Origin: a virus
Lineage: Duplodnaviria; Caudoviricetes
IMG/VR virus record: IMGVR_UViG_3300043252_000011
Span: 1 to 64,000 of that record
Reading direction: 5' to 3' (one strand)
DNA length: 64,000 nt
Made by a program: the position numbers and the translations under genes. Shown one piece after another: positions 31,483 to 64,000 of the stretch (positions are counted from its first letter, which is position 1; each line of letters starts with the position of its first letter). The notes beneath the pieces are model-generated. The model was given only the letters and a program-made list of their open reading frames with translations, was not told the origin of the DNA and did not search any database.

Positions 31483-33396
31483 TCACGGAGTCGGTGTTAA
31501 GATAAGTTCTACATCAGCAAATGCACTGTTGCCTTCTGTTTGAGTAACTCTGAAGTATAAAGTGGGGAAACCGGCGACTGTATACGTAGCCAGGTTATTA
31601 TTATTAATAGTTAAATTTTGTGCATTATTAGCAGTGCCGTCCGATGCGGTTGACACCGTCACTGCCGATCCCGACGTGACGATCTGCGTGCCGCCGCCGC
31701 TAGTCGCGGTAAATACCCCAACCTGTGATGCCGTAAGCGATCCCGTCGCTCCAATAATGCGAATAGAGTTTATGAGGTAGCGCGAAGCCCAAGCTGGCAA
31801 ACTAACTGAGAGCGGAGTGTCCCCGACTGCATTGAAATTCACTCCTGCGGCGATGACAGCCAACGTCGTTGACGCCGGATTTCCGTTTAAGTAGTAACCG
31901 CCGCCGGCAGCCAAGTTGACCGTAGACGGTCCTTTATCTGCTCCCACAGGCGGCGTGGTACCTGAGAACGTACCAAAATAAGTGCCGCCGTCATTAAAAA
32001 CGCAAAACCACGGAGCTTGAACTACGGCATTTATTGCAGTTGTGTACTCACAGTCTCGTGTCGGCTCCGACGTACTGCTCCAATTAGCATCTGCGTAAAC
32101 CTGGAAACTACCGCGGCCAAATACCCATCCTGGGCCGCCAGAAACACAGGTTGCGCAGTACGCACCGCCGCCACCGAAGGAGACGAGATTATTGCCGTTG
32201 ACGATCGCGGTAGGCGCGGCCAGCGTGCCGTTGGCGTACATACCGGTGAAAGACGGGCTGTCAGTGCCGCCGTTAGGAGTTGCGATAGCGATATATCGCG
32301 TACCTTGGCCGTCCACATTTGCAGCGGCGAAAGCAACATCGCCGCCCAGTAAAGCCGATGAAATCGGAGCGGCATTTAGATTAACTGCGGCCGTACCACC
32401 GCTAAAAGTCCATCCGGTTGCGTAGGTCGCAACACAGTTCACGACGTTCGTAATTATTCCATAAAACAAACAAAGAGGCCGCAGCGTTCCGCCGTTGTAA
32501 GCCACAGAGCCAAAAGCAGAATAGCCTAGTGTGGTGTCGGCGCCGAAACGTGCGCAGCCGACCGGAGCGCTTGCATTTGCGATAAGATCGGCATCGCAAT
32601 CATCGTGCCAAGTTATAAAACCTTCCGCGTTTGCTGTTGCCGTCCCGTTAGGCATCAAATCAGATGCCATTCTAGTATTTACCGTAGTTGGCCTGGCAGT
32701 TTGAACAGGAAAAGTCGTAATCGTAGGACGCGGCAAGATTTGAAACTGATTGCCGCCAGTACCGAAAAACAATTGATCTAAAAAAGTCCCGGTCGGTATC
32801 GCAGAAGTTCCAGTGGGGTTGCCCAACGCCTGCCCCGCCTGTATTACTGGCGTGCCGCCCCCACCGCCCGACGTTGTCTGATCGTAAAAAATCGGTTCGA
32901 TCAAAAGCGTATTGACCGGGCCGCCCGGCGAAACTGCACACACGCGCGCTTGTGTGTACATCATATAGTAGTCAGCTTGCGGCGATGCTTGGATTACATT
33001 GCTGGGCGGCGTTGATGGGCACGCGGCGCTCCACGAAACCGTCGTACCGCCAGCTACAGTCATCGCAGCGGAAAGCGTTATGCCCGTTGTACCGTTGTAC
33101 GCAGCAACCGTTGTTCCCGACGTGATTCCCGCACCGGAAATCAGGCCGCCAACAATCGGTGGTATTGCTGGCGTCGCTGTCAGCGTCAAAGTCGTAGATG
33201 AGCCTGACGTGCTGCCGATGCCAGAACCTTGGGACGTGAAAATTGACGCGTTGCCCGCGATCATGCGGACCTTGATCGGGCCGTTACCTAAATCGGCGAC
33301 TGCATTTGCAGCGATCGGCAGTGTGATGGCGTTCTGTGCGTGCGCGTGAAGCGCCGTACAGAGCAGAAACGATAAGGCGAGTAGAAATCTGCGCAT
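31483..33396 (-). CDS. large fibre/appendage-like protein with Sec signal peptide
   Basis: MRRFLLALSFLLCTALHAHA-Q; N-domain paralogous to 35562-36107; multiple Cys. Confidence 0.7.
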   Translation of the reverse strand: MRRFLLALSFLLCTALHAHAQNAITLPIAANAVADLGNGPIKVRMIAGNASIFTSQGSGIGSTSGSSTTLTLTATPAIPPIVGGLISGAGITSGTTVAAYNGTTGITLSAAMTVAGGTTVSWSAACPSTPPSNVIQASPQADYYMMYTQARVCAVSPGGPVNTLLIEPIFYDQTTSGGGGGTPVIQAGQALGNPTGTSAIPTGTFLDQLFFGTGGNQFQILPRPTITTFPVQTARPTTVNTRMASDLMPNGTATANAEGFITWHDDCDADLIANASAPVGCARFGADTTLGYSAFGSVAYNGGTLRPLCLFYGIITNVVNCVATYATGWTFSGGTAAVNLNAAPISSALLGGDVAFAAANVDGQGTRYIAIATPNGGTDSPSFTGMYANGTLAAPTAIVNGNNLVSFGGGGAYCATCVSGGPGWVFGRGSFQVYADANWSSTSEPTRDCEYTTAINAVVQAPWFCVFNDGGTYFGTFSGTTPPVGADKGPSTVNLAAGGGYYLNGNPASTTLAVIAAGVNFNAVGDTPLSVSLPAWASRYLINSIRIIGATGSLTASQVGVFTATSGGGTQIVTSGSAVTVSTASDGTANNAQNLTINNNNLATYTVAGFPTLYFRVTQTEGNSAFADVELILTPTP

Positions 33397-34349
33397 CAGA
33401 AGTTCCACCCATTGGTCGCGCTGCGCATATTGGCGAGCATGGCTTGATAGGATGAGTTGAGATCAGCGGGCCAAATGCCGGCTTCGCAGACAAAACCCGC
33501 GATCATGCTCAGAGTGCCTGCCGAGCGGCCCATAAAATATTCAGGACCGCTTAATGCGGTGCCGCCGGAACTCGCTGTGTTTGTATTTGCGCTGCTATCC
33601 GACGCAAAAAGAGGCGCCGCGGCATTTACAACATTCAAAAGTGCGTGGGGCGCTCCATCGGCTACCGTGAGAGAAATTGTTGCCCCATTCGAGGTTTGAA
33701 CAGTGTTTGCAGAATTACCAAATCTAAGAAAAGTCAAATTGGTTCCATTGCCAAAAATGTTTTGCACAGTTGTATTGCTGCCTGTTCGCTCAGTAACCGC
33801 CGTCAGCGTATAGGGGGCAGATTGAGAAATATTTCCGGCAGTTTTCAGTACCGTCGCTGCATTTCCCGTCCCCGCCGCGCACGGCAAACCATTCTGCGCA
33901 CTGAGCGTCAGCCCCGGCATATTAGCGAGCGTCGCCTGAACGACGTGATTGCCGGTGCCGGTTTGATCGTAGAGTTTTGTGATGCTGCACGCGACGTGTG
34001 TGATGGTGCAGAACGTTGTCACGCTCACAACCGGGGCTCCGGTCGGACACACGACGGCAGCCATATTGGCAAAGCCGTTCGTACCGACGTTGAGCGTACA
34101 GGTCGCCAGCCCTGTTGCGGTGTCCACAAGATCGGCTAGCGGACTTTGCGCGGCGGCGTAGGCGGCATTGTAGGCGCGGCCGGCGGAGTAGAATGCGATG
34201 GCGCCACTGGCGATGTCGCCGGGGCCTTGGTATCCGGCGGCGGATTTGACGGTATTAAATACGCCTTCGCCGATCAATTGCGCTGATGCCTGCCACGCAC
34301 CAAAAAGCACAACGCATGCTGTCAGCCATGTCAGAGCGATTTTGCGCAT
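33396..34349 (-). CDS. signal-peptide protein with arabinofuranosidase B (GH54)/ConA-like domain
   Basis: GPGDI...RAY...FC...CSITKLYDQTGTGNHVVQA resembles the AbfB catalytic N-terminus; signal ends ASA-Q. Confidence 0.6.
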   Translation of the reverse strand: MRKIALTWLTACVVLFGAWQASAQLIGEGVFNTVKSAAGYQGPGDIASGAIAFYSAGRAYNAAYAAAQSPLADLVDTATGLATCTLNVGTNGFANMAAVVCPTGAPVVSVTTFCTITHVACSITKLYDQTGTGNHVVQATLANMPGLTLSAQNGLPCAAGTGNAATVLKTAGNISQSAPYTLTAVTERTGSNTTVQNIFGNGTNLTFLRFGNSANTVQTSNGATISLTVADGAPHALLNVVNAAAPLFASDSSANTNTASSGGTALSGPEYFMGRSAGTLSMIAGFVCEAGIWPADLNSSYQAMLANMRSATNGWNF

Positions 34350-59054: not shown

Positions 59055-59852
59055 TTACAGGCCGAATTCGTAACTCAACCGCGTCCAATACTGCGTGCCG
59101 AGGTTGGCGCCCGCACTGAGTGTGAGCGGAGCGCCGTTTGTCGCGAAGGCGTTACCCATGGTGAAACCCTTGACCGGGAATGCAACGCCGGCAGAAGCAT
59201 CGATCGCGCCGCCGTTCGGCTTGCCATCGGTGCCGAGCGTAGGCCAAATGAAGCCGCCAGTAATCATCGGGTAAGCGCCAACGGTCGTGCCGTTCGCGTT
59301 ACCGAAGCTGCCACTGATTCCGGCTTCTTTGAGGCCAACGCCGACGTATTGCCGTGGTGCTCCGACAGGAACGGTCGGGGGAATCGGCGTGAAGGTCGGA
59401 AAGTTCGTCACCGGCAACGTCGGGAGGGCCGCATAAATCTTTTGCAGCCATTCAAAGCCGATGTCGAATTCCTGCGTCGCGGCCCATCGACTTGCGATTG
59501 CTGCGCTGGCTGCGCTTGTCGTGGCAGTTGCCTGCACCGTATTGGTGCCAGTGATATTCGACCATTCGCCGGTCAATTTGCCTCTGCACCATCCGATAGC
59601 GCAGTGGCCGACATAACCGACTTCGCCGCCGACCGCGCCACCCGTCGCCGTGAGATTGCCGCTTGCGAGACTCGTGGCAAAGACATTGGTGCCGCTGACA
59701 CTCGACTGCGCGACATCAGCCTCGGTGAGGATACCGACAAACCAGCTGGAACCGGCCGCGGTAGCTGCCGGTGCCTTCAATGGCAAGTCTGCCGCCAGAG
59801 CCGGTACTGCCAGCGCGGTAAGCGCCATGGTAAGCAGTAGCAATTTGCGCAT
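59055..59852 (-). CDS. outer-membrane beta-barrel (homolog of 21603-22409)
   Basis: Signal then AADLPLKA; ends LSYEFGL; SD aggagg. Confidence 0.8.
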   Translation of the reverse strand: MRKLLLLTMALTALAVPALAADLPLKAPAATAAGSSWFVGILTEADVAQSSVSGTNVFATSLASGNLTATGGAVGGEVGYVGHCAIGWCRGKLTGEWSNITGTNTVQATATTSAASAAIASRWAATQEFDIGFEWLQKIYAALPTLPVTNFPTFTPIPPTVPVGAPRQYVGVGLKEAGISGSFGNANGTTVGAYPMITGGFIWPTLGTDGKPNGGAIDASAGVAFPVKGFTMGNAFATNGAPLTLSAGANLGTQYWTRLSYEFGL

Positions 59853-59925
59853 GGAAACCTCCTGTTGAGTTACGTGGTCAACCATACGCTTTTAGTTGTG
59901 TCTTTGGTGCAACACAGTTTGGAAA

Positions 59926-60153
59926 TCAGCGACCGATCGCGCCTCCCGGCTGCGTGCCAGGGGAGTTTGCTGGAGCGCCAATGACCTTGCCGGTGCGATT
60001 GTTTACTACACTCCACACTGCGGCGCCCACCGCAACTATGGCGGCGGTAATGTCACCGACATCGCTCTGGGTAATCCATCCCTTTGCGACCGCATAGGCG
60101 AGAGCCGGCGGAATGATAGCACGCAGAATTCCAGTGATTTGATCGTAGTTCAT
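59926..60153 (-). CDS. putative holin
   Basis: DQITGILRAI...AKGWI...AAVWSV, two TM segments. Confidence 0.7.
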   Translation of the reverse strand: MNYDQITGILRAIIPPALAYAVAKGWITQSDVGDITAAIVAVGAAVWSVVNNRTGKVIGAPANSPGTQPGGAIGR

Positions 60154-60154
60154 G

Positions 60155-60394
60155 TCACTTCCCCTGATTGACTGGTTTGAAGTTTACGATGCCACCCCAC
60201 CAAAAATGACAACACAGAAAGCCGGTCAAAAACCCGGCAATCCATGGAAATGGCGGAAACGCGGCCGTGATGTTCCAGACAAAACGCGACAGCGTGGATG
60301 TTCCGTCATAGAGCGAATAGCCTTCCATCACCGAGAAGCTGATGACGATCAGCAATAGCCACACCGCCCATTTGATGCTGCCTTTCATCATCAT
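60155..60394 (-). CDS. small Trp-rich two-TM membrane protein (homolog of 21307-21522)
   Basis: STLSRFVW...FPPFPWIAGFLTGFLCCHFWWGG. Confidence 0.75.
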   Translation of the reverse strand: MMMKGSIKWAVWLLLIVISFSVMEGYSLYDGTSTLSRFVWNITAAFPPFPWIAGFLTGFLCCHFWWGGIVNFKPVNQGK

Positions 60395-60972
60395 ACCGTC
60401 TCCCTCGTGAAGGTTACTGTCGGATCAAGTTTTGCAATCATCCACAAAAGCGGCGCACAGCCAGGTTGCGGGTCCATGACGGTCGATGACCAGACATGAT
60501 CGCGAATCCATTTGCCGGGTTGCTGAATGTTCGTGCAGCCCCAAATGTACGACGATGGATGGCCCCACGCTTCCGAGCCGACGCCATTGAACAGCAGCAT
60601 ATAGTAGAGCTGCTTCTCGAGCCGCCAATCGCTGATGCTGCCCCAGCCCTCGACATTGATAGCATCCACACCACCGTCAATGAAAGCATTTGGGCCAATG
60701 AAAGGACCGCGCCCCACGGGCACTTCCGTGGTTCTGAGCGTCAGCGTTTGGCCGTTGCCTAAATAGGTTTTGAAATTCGCATCGCTCTCGCGGCGATGAA
60801 TGCAAGCGAGCATTTGCCATGGCACACGGGTCTTGGATTCGAGTACCTGATATGTGACTTTGTTGTTGATCGCAAACTGCGCCTCCTCCGTGAATGCCTG
60901 CACGCGGCCGGCATTGATGGTCATTGCGTCCCACCATTTCGCATAGCGCGGCCAGATGTCGGAGTAGCGCAT
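60391..60972 (-). CDS. lysozyme-family endolysin (COG5526-like)
   Basis: VPW..IH.RES..F..YLGNG...VP.GRGPF...SSYIW.CTN...GKWIRDHVW...D.QPGC..LL. Confidence 0.8.
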   Translation of the reverse strand: MRYSDIWPRYAKWWDAMTINAGRVQAFTEEAQFAINNKVTYQVLESKTRVPWQMLACIHRRESDANFKTYLGNGQTLTLRTTEVPVGRGPFIGPNAFIDGGVDAINVEGWGSISDWRLEKQLYYMLLFNGVGSEAWGHPSSYIWGCTNIQQPGKWIRDHVWSSTVMDPQPGCAPLLWMIAKLDPTVTFTRETV

Positions 60973-63512
60973 TAGTTGATCCCATAAACGAGAATTGAGC
61001 CGGACGTGATATTGCCGCTGTCCATAAGAACCTGGAAGCCATCAACGACGCCTGCGGTGTTCCAGTAGCCCGACATTTGCCCGGTAAAAGGAGGCGCGGA
61101 GCCCGACACATAATTCGCAAATCCACCGATCATGCAAATTGCATTGGCGGACGGATTAGTAATCGTGATCCAACCGCTCATACCGGGAGCCGAGTTGGCC
61201 AGTGAAAATCCATTTGCATCGAGCGGGTAACTTAATGGAATATAGCCTGTCGGGCCGACAGAACTCCCGCTTGATGAATTGATCCAACCGCCAAAGCTGC
61301 TGAGATAACCGCTCGATTTGTAAGCACCGCCGGAATGGATTTGCAGTTCTAGGATTTTTTCATTCGTTGCCGGAACGATGGCCTGAAATACCAGCAGATA
61401 GGACGTGTAGGTATTGTTGATCGGGCAAGTGCCGGATGTCGGCGAGGCATTGTTGATCGATGTCGAATTGCTCGCGGTGATCGTGCATAGGTAGGTCATC
61501 GCGCCGGTGCCGTTGGCACTCGCCCACGTTCCATCACCGCGCCAGAAGGTTCCTGCGCTGGCGCTGGTGCCGGAATTGAGATTGCTGACCGGAAGATTGC
61601 CGGTGACGCCGGTGCTGAGCGGCAAGCCGGTGGCATTTGTCAAGACTGCCGCGGATGGCGTGCCAAGCGCCGGCGTCGTCAATGTCGGCGACCCGCTGAA
61701 AACAAGCGAACCCGATCCGGTTGTGCTTTCCGCCGCCGCTGCGCGGAAGATGCGCCATGCCGCGCCGTCGTAGCCGATGAGCAAATCGAGTGCGCCGCCG
61801 CCGCCGGTAACCGTCGTATTCGGCAGCTTGCACGCGCCATCCCCGCAATTCGCCGCGAGGCCGTCGATGATGTGGGAGATTTGGCCGGCGGTCGGGGAGG
61901 CGGGGAGGCCGGCGTAGGTGTGGGCGGTGATGATCGGATCAGTGATCGTCGGCGCTTGCTTGCCAACAAGAATGCCGGTGCCGCTTATACCTTCGCCGTC
62001 GCTGTCTTGATAGCCAAGAGAAAAATTACATCCGCCGCTTCCCGGAAATATGCTGGCGCACGCCGTGGCGTTCGGCAAATTAAGAAAGCCGGGGCCTTGA
62101 CCGTTGAATTGCGAGCCGGTGCCTGTACCTGAAACGATCCATCCCGTGACATCAACGCTGGAATCAACCGCCTGTGCAAAGTTGCCCGACCAAGAGACCG
62201 AACTGCCGATTGTTGTAGTGCCGCCTGCCGCTAGATTGGCTCCGGCACTCAGGTTCCAATGATTGATGAAAGTAGTATTAGATAAAAGCGTTTCATTGGT
62301 GGCATTGACCGTAACGCCTTTGCCGGTTGCGGAAACATGGGAGCCTGAATTTCCCCAAGCGCCCCAGACGATTCCGCCATAATCGCAGATGGCTATCTGT
62401 CGGCATTGAATGCCTGGCCCGGCGCCATTGACAGCAGTGATCTCCAAATTGTTGACGCCGGCTTGGCCGCCGTCTTGGAGCAAAATACCCGTCGCGCCGC
62501 TTGGCACTTGGAGCACGACGTTCGACGGCGTGATAGAATTACCGTTGATCGAGAGAAGCTGGCCTGAGCTGCCGCCGCTATTTCCTTGATATGTGCACAG
62601 CGCGCCAGCAGTCGCGGTTGCGTAAGAACCACCCGACCCGTCGAGAAGCTGAATCGGTCCCGCCGCTCCTAAGAATGTCGCAATCTGTTTTACAAACGAA
62701 CACGCCGTCGCCAGCGTGCAGGCATTCCCCGAACTGAGACAATTGCCGCTGCCGGTTGCGCTCGGCGCGGCGTAGAGCGGGAGACCGCCGACGGGCGCAA
62801 CTGCGCCCCACACCGCAACGTCTTTTAGGAGCGATCCGGTGGAGTTATTCCAAATTGCTACATCGCCGATTGTGGATGAGGACGGCCCGACGATATTGCC
62901 AGTCCCAGGCCCGGCAGGAAGGCATGTTGGCGTCAATCCATTCGCACCGAGATTAAGAAACGCCCCAGCACAAGCACTCGGCTGCGGCAGTGGTCCCATC
63001 GTGTTGCCGGGTTGCGAAAACAGCCCGCGCCCGGTCAGGTCGTTGGTCTTGTCCCAAAGCTCACGCTCGACCGTGGTGGTTTCGGTCATGCGCTGGTTGA
63101 GATCGCGCGCCGCAACGCCGCGGCCTTCAGTGAATTGCGTCAACTGCCGCGGCCGTTCGGCGCCGACGATCTGCACTGTGCCGGTCTGGACCGCGTTGAA
63201 CGTCAGCACCGCATTGGTGATCGGCCGCGGGATGGTCGACAGCGGGCCGGTGGTTGAAGACAGCGACCAGCCGAAATTTGGGTCGGTCGAGAGATAGCGG
63301 ACGCCGTTCACCCAAACTTGCAGCCACGCATCGATGTCCGACCCACTGGCAAACAACGCCATATTCACAGCACAACTACAATTATTAGCGCTCAAACTAT
63401 ATGACGTTCGTCGCTCAGCATCAGGTAGCGCCGGCACAGCAGGAGGCGCCTGAGCAGCAGCAATACGCAGGCTCAACAACAGAAGTAAAATGATTGCCAT
63501 TGCTCGGCGCAT
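60972..63512 (-). CDS. tail fibre/spike with Sec signal peptide and T7 gp17-like N-terminal anchor
   Basis: [21 protein letters not shown]; RTSY...V.VNG...LTF...F..G...A.DLN...E anchor pattern; many Cys; [18 protein letters not shown] fibre repeat. Confidence 0.72.
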
Positions 63513-63513
63513 T

Positions 63514-64000
63514 TTACACTCCAAAGCTCAGTGCCCAAACCGGAGTCATGGGAGTTACGCGCGAGCGGCGGTTATTTGCTTGTTCTTTCGCTGTTGCCCA
63601 ACGACAATTTTCGGGCGAATAATCGCCGTTGACATTAATGCGATCAAGGCTGTGCTTGGAGGATGGCCTGCGACCCATATCATCGAGAAAGTTTTGATAA
63701 TCTTGGCGCCATCGCACACAAATAGCGATGCCGCGTCCGCCATATCTCGAATAGCATTTATTGTTTCGATTATAACAGCGACTTCTCATGGCGGCCCATG
63801 CTTTATACTCAGGGGTAGCATCTGTTTCGCCATGAGTTCTTGATCTATGACCGAGCGTTGCCAAGTTTTCTCGACTAAGGCACCCACAACTTCGGGTATT
63901 TCCAGTGCGCAGCAATGAACCAAAAACATCGGATTCGCCGCCGCAATCACATTTGCAGCGCCAGCGACCCTTTCGCTCATATCTCTGATAACTTGACGAA
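63514..64000 (-). CDS. HNH homing endonuclease (5' partial)
   Basis: SCGC, W.AMRSRC...[34 protein letters not shown]. Confidence 0.88.

Follow-up and report, generated by a model that had tools for sequence, protein, structure and literature searches.

At the end of the stretch analysed here, the first 64 kb (positions 1 to 64,000; hereafter the window) of the 98,428-bp viral record IMGVR_UViG_3300043252_000011, a gene on the minus strand (60972-63512) codes for a protein of 846 amino acids, which combines a podovirus tail-fibre adaptor of the T7 gp17 type with an N-terminal leader whose sequence has all the features of a cleavable Sec signal peptide. The protein is almost certainly a T7-type fibre, and we regard it as the sole fibre or tailspike for receptor binding in a podovirus of ~46 kb with a T7-like virion module. 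The fibre probably folds outside the cytoplasm, the compartment in which tailed-phage particles are built, and a full-text literature search retrieved no description of such a route, or of a secreted tail fibre, for tailed phages. According to the textbooks, tailed phages are assembled entirely in the cytoplasm, and to our knowledge phage tailspikes are made there without any leader.

A preliminary description of this stretch, made from its letters, had placed a signal peptide in front of a virion anchor domain resembling that of T7 gp17, and the 21 residues quoted there as the N-terminus agree with the minus-strand reading frame. The elements at the 5' end of the gene are as follows:

63519 to 63522, minus strand (63522-63519 in reading direction): ribosome-binding site GGAG, 6 nt 5' of the ATG, read from the sequence.
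63453 to 63512, minus strand: signal peptide, residues 1-20, from the sequence and the family statistics.
63018 to 63452, minus strand: mature N-terminal tail adaptor, residues 21-165, from an AlphaFold2 model, Foldseek and VIA-align.

The leader consists of the n-region MRR, an uncharged and Leu-rich h-region of 12 residues and the c-region RIAAA, with a predicted signal peptidase I cleavage site between A20 and Q21. The ATG at 63512-63510 follows the GGAG motif and lies 1 nt after the stop codon of the upstream HNH gene, and two alternative starts, TTG at 63524 and ATG at 63500 (the latter chosen in the public gene call P0002), are both located 5' of the hydrophobic core. Because all candidate starts precede the core and the following in-frame Met (residue 51) is already within the conserved domain, no choice of start would yield a protein without the leader, and the concern that the real start might lie downstream of the hydrophobic segment is thereby removed.

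Surveying the homologues, as the preliminary description had proposed, revealed that the leader is conserved across the family. It was present in 182 of 184 examined relatives, and the remaining two represent truncated gene calls in which the terminal A-x-A or G is retained. Among the 88 leaders examined first, the median length was 22 residues, the n-region was +2 in 57, position -3 was occupied by A, S, V or T in 85 and position -1 by A or G in all 88. The residue after the predicted cut was Gln in 81, Ala in six and Asp in one of them; because Cys never occurred at this position, there are no lipoproteins among the 88. The sequence of the leader itself is poorly conserved, with a pairwise identity of 24% at positions -18 to -4 versus 77% in the 18 residues past the cut, while the core retained its character (81% hydrophobic or small residues, 0.06 charged residues per protein). 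Signal peptides are known to evolve in this manner, drifting in sequence while keeping their character. Both the anatomy expected for Sec and signal peptidase I and its retention despite sequence drift were thus observed in the family. Judged by these sequence properties, the leader very probably acts as a functional export signal, and export of the fibre with cleavage by signal peptidase is strongly indicated.

The Gln following the predicted cut (Gln21, window 63450-63452) is also found in the leader-bearing proteins of another phage on the same contig, here called phage 1, and may give rise to an N-terminal pyroglutamate. A Gln at this position resembles the "Q-rule" described for Bacteroidota, while the likely host in this case is an alphaproteobacterium; among four Bradyrhizobium host genes with leader-like N-termini at locus L005, inspection by eye showed a Gln after the cut in one.

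The adaptor was recognised by its predicted fold. An AlphaFold2 model of residues 1-235, based on 80 aligned sequences (mean predicted local distance difference test score, pLDDT, 84.8), shows a beta-sandwich followed by a long helix, as in the N-terminal domain of T7 gp17, and contains a conserved C45-x-C47 motif. Searching the PDB with Foldseek, we obtained podovirus fibre N-terminal domains from portal-tail complexes as all of the best 17 matches. VIA-align of model residues 25-161 yielded a Z score of 12.3 with the fibre of LME-1 (root-mean-square deviation, rmsd, 2.8 over 124 residues), 11.3 with that of Carin-1 and 10.0-10.6 with T7 gp17 (7ey9, 7ey7, 7boz, 8e4g; for 7boz, Z 10.1 and rmsd 3.3 over 111 residues); below the T7 gp17 matches, the values fell to at most 6.4 and belonged to unrelated beta-sandwiches. 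The podovirus adaptor pattern claimed from the sequence is therefore real, as judged from the predicted fold (Z 10-12.3) and the position of the gene.

With sequence profiles, the relation does not become significant. A Pfam hmmscan of the whole protein identified no family at E <= 1, and PF03906 (Phage_T7_tail) did not match the whole contig in six frames at E <= 10, so its cut-off of 25.2 bits was not reached. Searches of the PDB sequences by phmmer and with the family profile found no fibre; the sole match of the family profile, a dehydrogenase at E 0.62, was discarded as due to chance. Aligning 44 adaptors of the family with 10 T7-family adaptors by hhalign gave an E-value of 0.13 over 98 columns, which is not significant by sequence alone. 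The alignment nevertheless followed the correct order and superposed QF.E..GV.ARDLN of the family on DF.DGS.L.A.DLN of the T7 family, lining up the motif F..(E/D)..G....A.DLN, the pattern pointed to in the preliminary description. According to the model, we classify the adaptor as a structural and positional homologue of the T7 gp17 N-terminal domain and not as a Pfam member. A complex prediction for tail tubular protein A with three copies of the mature adaptor returned a score of 0.00, which is uninformative in either direction.

A full HMMER search of 1.84 billion representatives detected the adaptor at E <= 0.001 in 657 clusters (50% identity), and in all of the best 150 of these it starts at residue 11-62, mostly at 19-33. 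In the structural alignments, residues 1-5 of the solved fibres, whose domain starts at residue 2-5, pair with model residues 25-33, and in eight annotated genes for T7-family fibres only 0-14 residues precede the adaptor, whereas the adaptor of the protein studied here begins only at residue 25-33 of the primary product. Because the solved and annotated T7-family fibres start at or near the adaptor, the 20-residue leader represents an addition. A locus search with the alignment as query provided 56 IMG/VR loci; the N-terminal module gave no match by tblastn against 50,697 isolated phage genomes.

The position of the gene corresponds to that of gp17 in T7. The fibre belongs to the right-hand part of the contig (~52.1-98.4 kb), where the minus strand codes successively for the large terminase, a T7-type portal (PF12236), a protein with a weak match to the T7 scaffold, the major head protein (phrog_212), tail tubular A (phrog_394), tail tubular B (phrog_376), three internal virion proteins, one of which contains a transglycosylase domain, an HNH protein, the fibre, a 193-aa protein, a 79-aa membrane protein and a Pam3-gp28-type holin. 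Within this module, which also encodes a T7-type portal and both tail tubular proteins, the fibre gene thus comes after those for the internal virion proteins, and the T7 order of gp16, gp17 and holin is the same. Of the 58 related loci, 41 have a tail tubular B homologue on the same strand, upstream of the fibre gene, and 39 and 36 have homologues of internal proteins A and B there, respectively. Since the stop codon of the fibre gene overlaps the start of the downstream gene by one base and the HNH stop precedes the fibre ATG by 1 nt, the fibre gene is embedded in an operon.

Downstream of the adaptor, the protein continues as a series of swappable modules (residues 1-231, 232-620 and 660-846), with the following features:

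62820 to 63017, minus strand: conserved neck of the N-terminal module, residues 166-231, with C181 and C197, from homologue coverage, alignment and Cys positions.
61959 to 62786, minus strand: right-handed parallel beta-helix body, residues ~242-517, from the AlphaFold2 model and VIA-align.
61533 to 61958, minus strand: residues 518-660, with C556 and C561 (NCGDGAC), pLDDT about 40 as a monomer.
60975 to 61526, minus strand: C-terminal beta-sandwich, residues 663-846, from phrog_14820 at 5.6e-15 and the AlphaFold2 model.

The N-terminal module ends after the neck at residue 231. The body that follows adopts a right-handed beta-helix fold in the model and resembles tailspikes or polysaccharide depolymerases, with VIA-align Z scores of 14-17 against tailspikes and pectate-lyase-fold enzymes (215-250 aligned residues); Foldseek alone gave weak matches (best E 2.7e-3). 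The subsequent segment (residues 518-660) is probably a trimer-dependent shaft, as far as can be judged from the monomer model, and the C-terminal beta-sandwich, which shows weak Foldseek likeness to lectin or galectin-type folds and 31% identity to a protein of Pelagibacter podophage HTVC019P, is probably a distal binding domain. Compared with isolated phage genomes, the body returned only short motif matches, including one in Bradyrhizobium phage ppBjS10J-1. The same body also occurs under other N-terminal modules (e.g., in P0015, which has a phage-1-type N-terminus), and these carry A-x-A-Q leaders as well; conversely, fibres whose bodies differ widely retain the leader, whatever the fold of the body.

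The preliminary description had also pointed to a Cys-rich body, and the strings quoted for it were found at residues 258-271 (GNC..NAC..ATAC) and 556-561 (NCGDGAC). The fibre contains 17 cysteines (2.0%), most of them in close pairs (45/47, 181/197, 258/265, 271/306, 370/376, 485/495, 556/561 and 676/696), of which C258, C265, C271, C306, C370, C376, C485 and C495 lie in the beta-helix, whereas in the nozzle, portal, head and internal proteins of this phage's virion the Cys content is 0-0.7%. Among the leader-bearing proteins of at least 450 residues, the Cys count of the mature protein was even in 152 of 168, and that of the bodies alone in 151; the binomial probability of this parity (p ~1e-28) is overstated since the sequences are related. 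The first set comprised 136 leader-bearing proteins, all with 0, 2, 4 or 6 cysteines in the adaptor itself, and a wider set added four proteins with three. This signature fits folding in an oxidising compartment.

The family also includes members lacking the leader, which were found in five of the 56 IMG/VR loci (L053, L061-63 and L064; those of L061-63 are identical in the adaptor). The adaptors of these podoviruses of the same type are located as follows:

L053, 10004-10501: leaderless adaptor.
L061, 10010-10507: leaderless adaptor.
L064, 9995-10492: leaderless adaptor.

These proteins start with M-x(3-6)-PALPD, 1-3 residues from the predicted mature N-terminus of the others, contain no cysteines in the adaptor and are encoded close to the same podovirus genes in those loci with upstream sequence; they provide ready-made natural controls for the leader. 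In a tree calculated with masked cysteines, the leaderless and the cysteine-free members fell into one well-supported group of 18. Only one adaptor copy is present on the contig and in each of the 58 loci. We also considered a conserved internal start which would produce a leaderless isoform. Val26 is nearly invariant (window 63435-63437) and encoded by GTG in 23 of 48 genes (48%, compared with 23% of the Val codons elsewhere in these genes). As a family feature, the internal start was rejected: Val26 has a non-start codon in 25 of the 48 genes, and 21 of 48 lack any start-type codon between the core and the adaptor, as counted over the 11 codons leading up to the LPD motif.

From these observations we propose an assembly route in two compartments. 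A fibre precursor bearing a cleavable Sec signal peptide would be synthesised, threaded unfolded through SecYEG and cut by signal peptidase I before Gln21, and folding, trimerisation and disulfide bonding would take place in the periplasm. Meanwhile, fibreless particles would be completed in the cytoplasm, and the adaptor would dock at the tail (the adaptor/nozzle ring) no earlier than the opening of the inner membrane by the holin, either in the interval before the envelope bursts or afterwards. Addition of fibres or tailspikes is the last, external and spontaneous step of podovirus assembly, and P22 tailspikes reportedly join finished heads spontaneously in vitro (work attributed to Israel, Anderson and Levine in 1967). 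We see roughly even chances that the exported pool of fibre is the one that ends up on the virion, and the complete sequence of events from export to late docking could equally hold or fail. Slightly less assured is the generalisation that two-compartment assembly, with heads and tails made in the cytoplasm and secreted, Gln-trimmed and disulfide-bonded fibres clipped on after holin action, is a trait spread across at least 657 clusters and onto further fibre types of Bradyrhizobium-type phages.

Of the original claim that a domain docking on the tail is routed through Sec, the adaptor fold, its position and the conserved Sec-type leader are borne out, while the arrival of exported molecules on the virion is what we infer. 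The claim that this fibre provides independent support for extracytoplasmic maturation holds insofar as its N-terminal module is unrelated to those of phage 1, and has to be qualified because both share a contig, a presumed host group and a module pool.

Several points weigh against the proposed route. Kinetically, six trimers are needed per particle amid dilution, and docking after lysis would be efficient only if mixing occurs inside a still-closed envelope; otherwise it would have to tolerate dilution. The Cys parity is derived from non-independent sequences, the count of the fibre itself is odd with C793 left unpaired, and 16 of the 168 relatives have odd counts too. The tree is unrooted, making one gain of the leader indistinguishable from two losses, and, given the enrichment of GTG at Val26, some members might use a minor internal start.

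The main rival, which we consider unlikely on balance, assumes two pools of fibre: most of it would be exported for a job off the particle, whereas virions would use a small unexported fraction from the cytoplasm. Acting from the periplasm or the cell surface, the exported protein might cut or mask the surface polysaccharide receptor and so block superinfection and sticking of the progeny to debris. The nature of the body as a beta-helix of the depolymerase or tailspike type suits such a role, and VexL, a periplasmic capsule depolymerase, is among its best matches; moreover, there are temperate relatives containing an integrase, family members reside in Bradyrhizobium chromosomes, and the GTG codons at Val26 might supply the unexported form. 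However, the leader is kept across fibres of very different body fold, and 21 of the 48 genes offer no possible internal start. An uncleaved precursor would carry 20 hydrophobic residues at its docking end, exactly where the leaderless and the solved fibres start. In addition, the adaptor is strongly constrained, with 16 invariant columns in the alignment of 44 sequences, and the gene lies within the late operon with overlapping stops and starts.

A very unlikely variant of export is that an uncleaved or slowly cleaved signal-anchor holds the fibre on the periplasmic side of the membrane until the holin depolarises it, as known for signal-arrest-release (SAR) endolysins. The gene adjoins the lysis genes, and timed release would solve the problem of premature diffusion. 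Yet the core is rich in Leu, Ile and Ala (mean Kyte-Doolittle hydropathy 2.14), unlike the weak, Gly/Ala/Ser-rich helix of SAR proteins, all 88 leaders end in a canonical A-x-A-type site, and the mature start coincides with the start of the leaderless relatives.

Still less probable is a twin-arginine translocation (Tat) signal, by which the fibre would fold and trimerise in the cytoplasm and be exported in folded form. Many leaders indeed contain RR followed by hydrophobic residues, here MRRAMAII, but RR is present in only 87 of 182 (48%), the others having KR, RK, KK or a single basic residue, and the Tat motif S/T-R-R-x-hydrophobic-hydrophobic in only 2 of 182. For this reason we assign the leader to Sec rather than Tat; its short length (median 22) and strong hydrophobicity (mean core hydropathy 2.14) also argue against a Tat signal, and the paired cysteines agree with folding in the periplasm. 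That the segment is no export signal at all, being a mis-called start or an internal structural helix of the virion, is hardly credible even though AlphaFold2 predicts residues 2-14 as a confident helix (pLDDT 82-91), given that all possible starts lie upstream of the core, conservation at the protein level starts at residue 21, the character of the segment is conserved instead of its sequence and the solved homologous adaptors have no such helix.

The genes flanking the fibre gene in the window are the following:

63514 to 64000, minus strand (continuing to contig position 64125): HNH endonuclease gene, phrog_374 at 3.4e-56.
60391 to 60972, minus strand: 193-aa protein downstream of the fibre, from the list of open reading frames.
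59926 to 60394, minus strand: 79-aa membrane protein (60155-60394) and holin of the Pam3 gp28 family (59926-60153, PF23987 at 7.8e-14).

The HNH gene is an insertion that separates the gene of the last internal virion protein from the fibre gene, and homologues of it occur in only 2 of the 58 related loci, at other positions. As gp17 in T7, the fibre is directly upstream of the lysis genes. The 193-aa protein recurs downstream of fibres in relatives (four loci); Pfam, PHROG and PDB searches did not produce a match for it, leaving an identity as lysin unconfirmed. A further gene of the lysis cassette (window 59055-59885) codes for a 276-aa protein with a leader and a C-terminus resembling an outer-membrane beta-barrel and ending in F-G-L, which had no Pfam or PHROG match.

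Outside the window, four consecutive small genes for proteins of 208, 165, 174 and 323 aa (contig 73694-76345, minus strand; L004:9694-12345) are located between the head genes and tail tubular A. Each of the proteins starts with a signal-peptide-like leader, and their mature parts contain 4, 2, 4 and 6 cysteines. Between the 323-aa protein and a leader-bearing protein of 317 aa from phage 1 (compare window 33396-34349), the identity amounts to 72%, and the leaders of the two differ.

In IMG/VR, the whole 98-kb record (G000:C1:1-98428) is classed as complete with direct terminal repeats. For the right-hand genome, the related contigs measure about 44-49 kb, a size that agrees with a record in which two phage genomes were joined by assembly. 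The closest isolated phages are remote, namely Microcystis phage Mwe-JY08 (30% in the nozzle) and Pelagibacter podophages. Because the family members with NCBI names (P0065, P0071 and P0111) come from Bradyrhizobium, this group probably provides the host. In cultured Bradyrhizobium genomes, the leader-bearing fibre is contained in small integrated elements and not in full prophages. One of these in a Bradyrhizobium sp. chromosome (CP197229.1; L005:3191-15099) contains genes for an integrase, an AlpA-like helix-turn-helix protein, a Toprim and AAA_25 primase-helicase and the fibre, together with a tail tubular B homologue (phrog_376) and a small terminase (phrog_2538); another in Bradyrhizobium sp. 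18BD (L075:3899-12115) contains an integrase, a T7-scaffold-like protein and the fibre. With no head or portal gene nearby, both look like phage satellites that supply a helper podovirus with a nozzle, fibre or scaffold of their own.

If the proposed route is true, SecA/SecYEG, signal peptidase and DsbA become dependency factors of the phage, and the last assembly step is coupled to holin timing, so that the timing of lysis doubles as an assembly step. Fibres could then use disulfides, a bond that the cytoplasm does not allow. The route would also account for the failure of such fibres on cytoplasmic expression for engineering. Annotation pipelines which count a signal peptide against a virion role would mislabel them. 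The question is directly testable, as family members are present in sequenced Bradyrhizobium strains.

Among the known systems, T7 gp17 is the closest counterpart. Its N-terminal domain (7ey9, 7boz, 8e4g; PF03906) has the same adaptor fold (Z 10-12.3), as do the equivalent domains in the fibres of LME-1, Carin-1, P-SCSP1u, Kp9, HRP29 and A4, and it carries the F..(D/E)..G....A.DLN stretch at the same place. The gene position after the internal virion proteins and before the holin and the modular build from a conserved N-terminal anchor and swappable bodies are likewise shared. Unlike T7 gp17, the fibre described here possesses a 20-residue secretion signal, a conserved CxC motif and two further cysteines, and does not significantly match PF03906 or the T7-family profile. 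Its body corresponds to the beta-helices of HK620, Sf6, CBA120 TSP2, Acinetobacter phage Fri1 gp49 and VexL, but differs from beta-helix tailspikes by its paired cysteines. Signal peptides on phage genes, exposing a Gln after cleavage, have been described for Porphyromonas phages (Matrishin et al. 2023, PMC10367356), a report that leaves tail parts unmentioned. The host Sec system also serves other late or accessory genes of phages, namely those for signal-peptide or SAR endolysins, spanins and exclusion lipoproteins, yet none of them codes for a receptor-binding part of the virion. Virion proteins with cleavable Sec signal peptides are known from the Ff phages, whose g3p and g8p are made in this way, with the disulfides of g3p depending on DsbA. 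Ff phages, however, assemble at the membrane and are extruded through it without lysis, whereas the phage described here is a tailed podovirus released by lysis, with its capsid and tail made in the cytoplasm.

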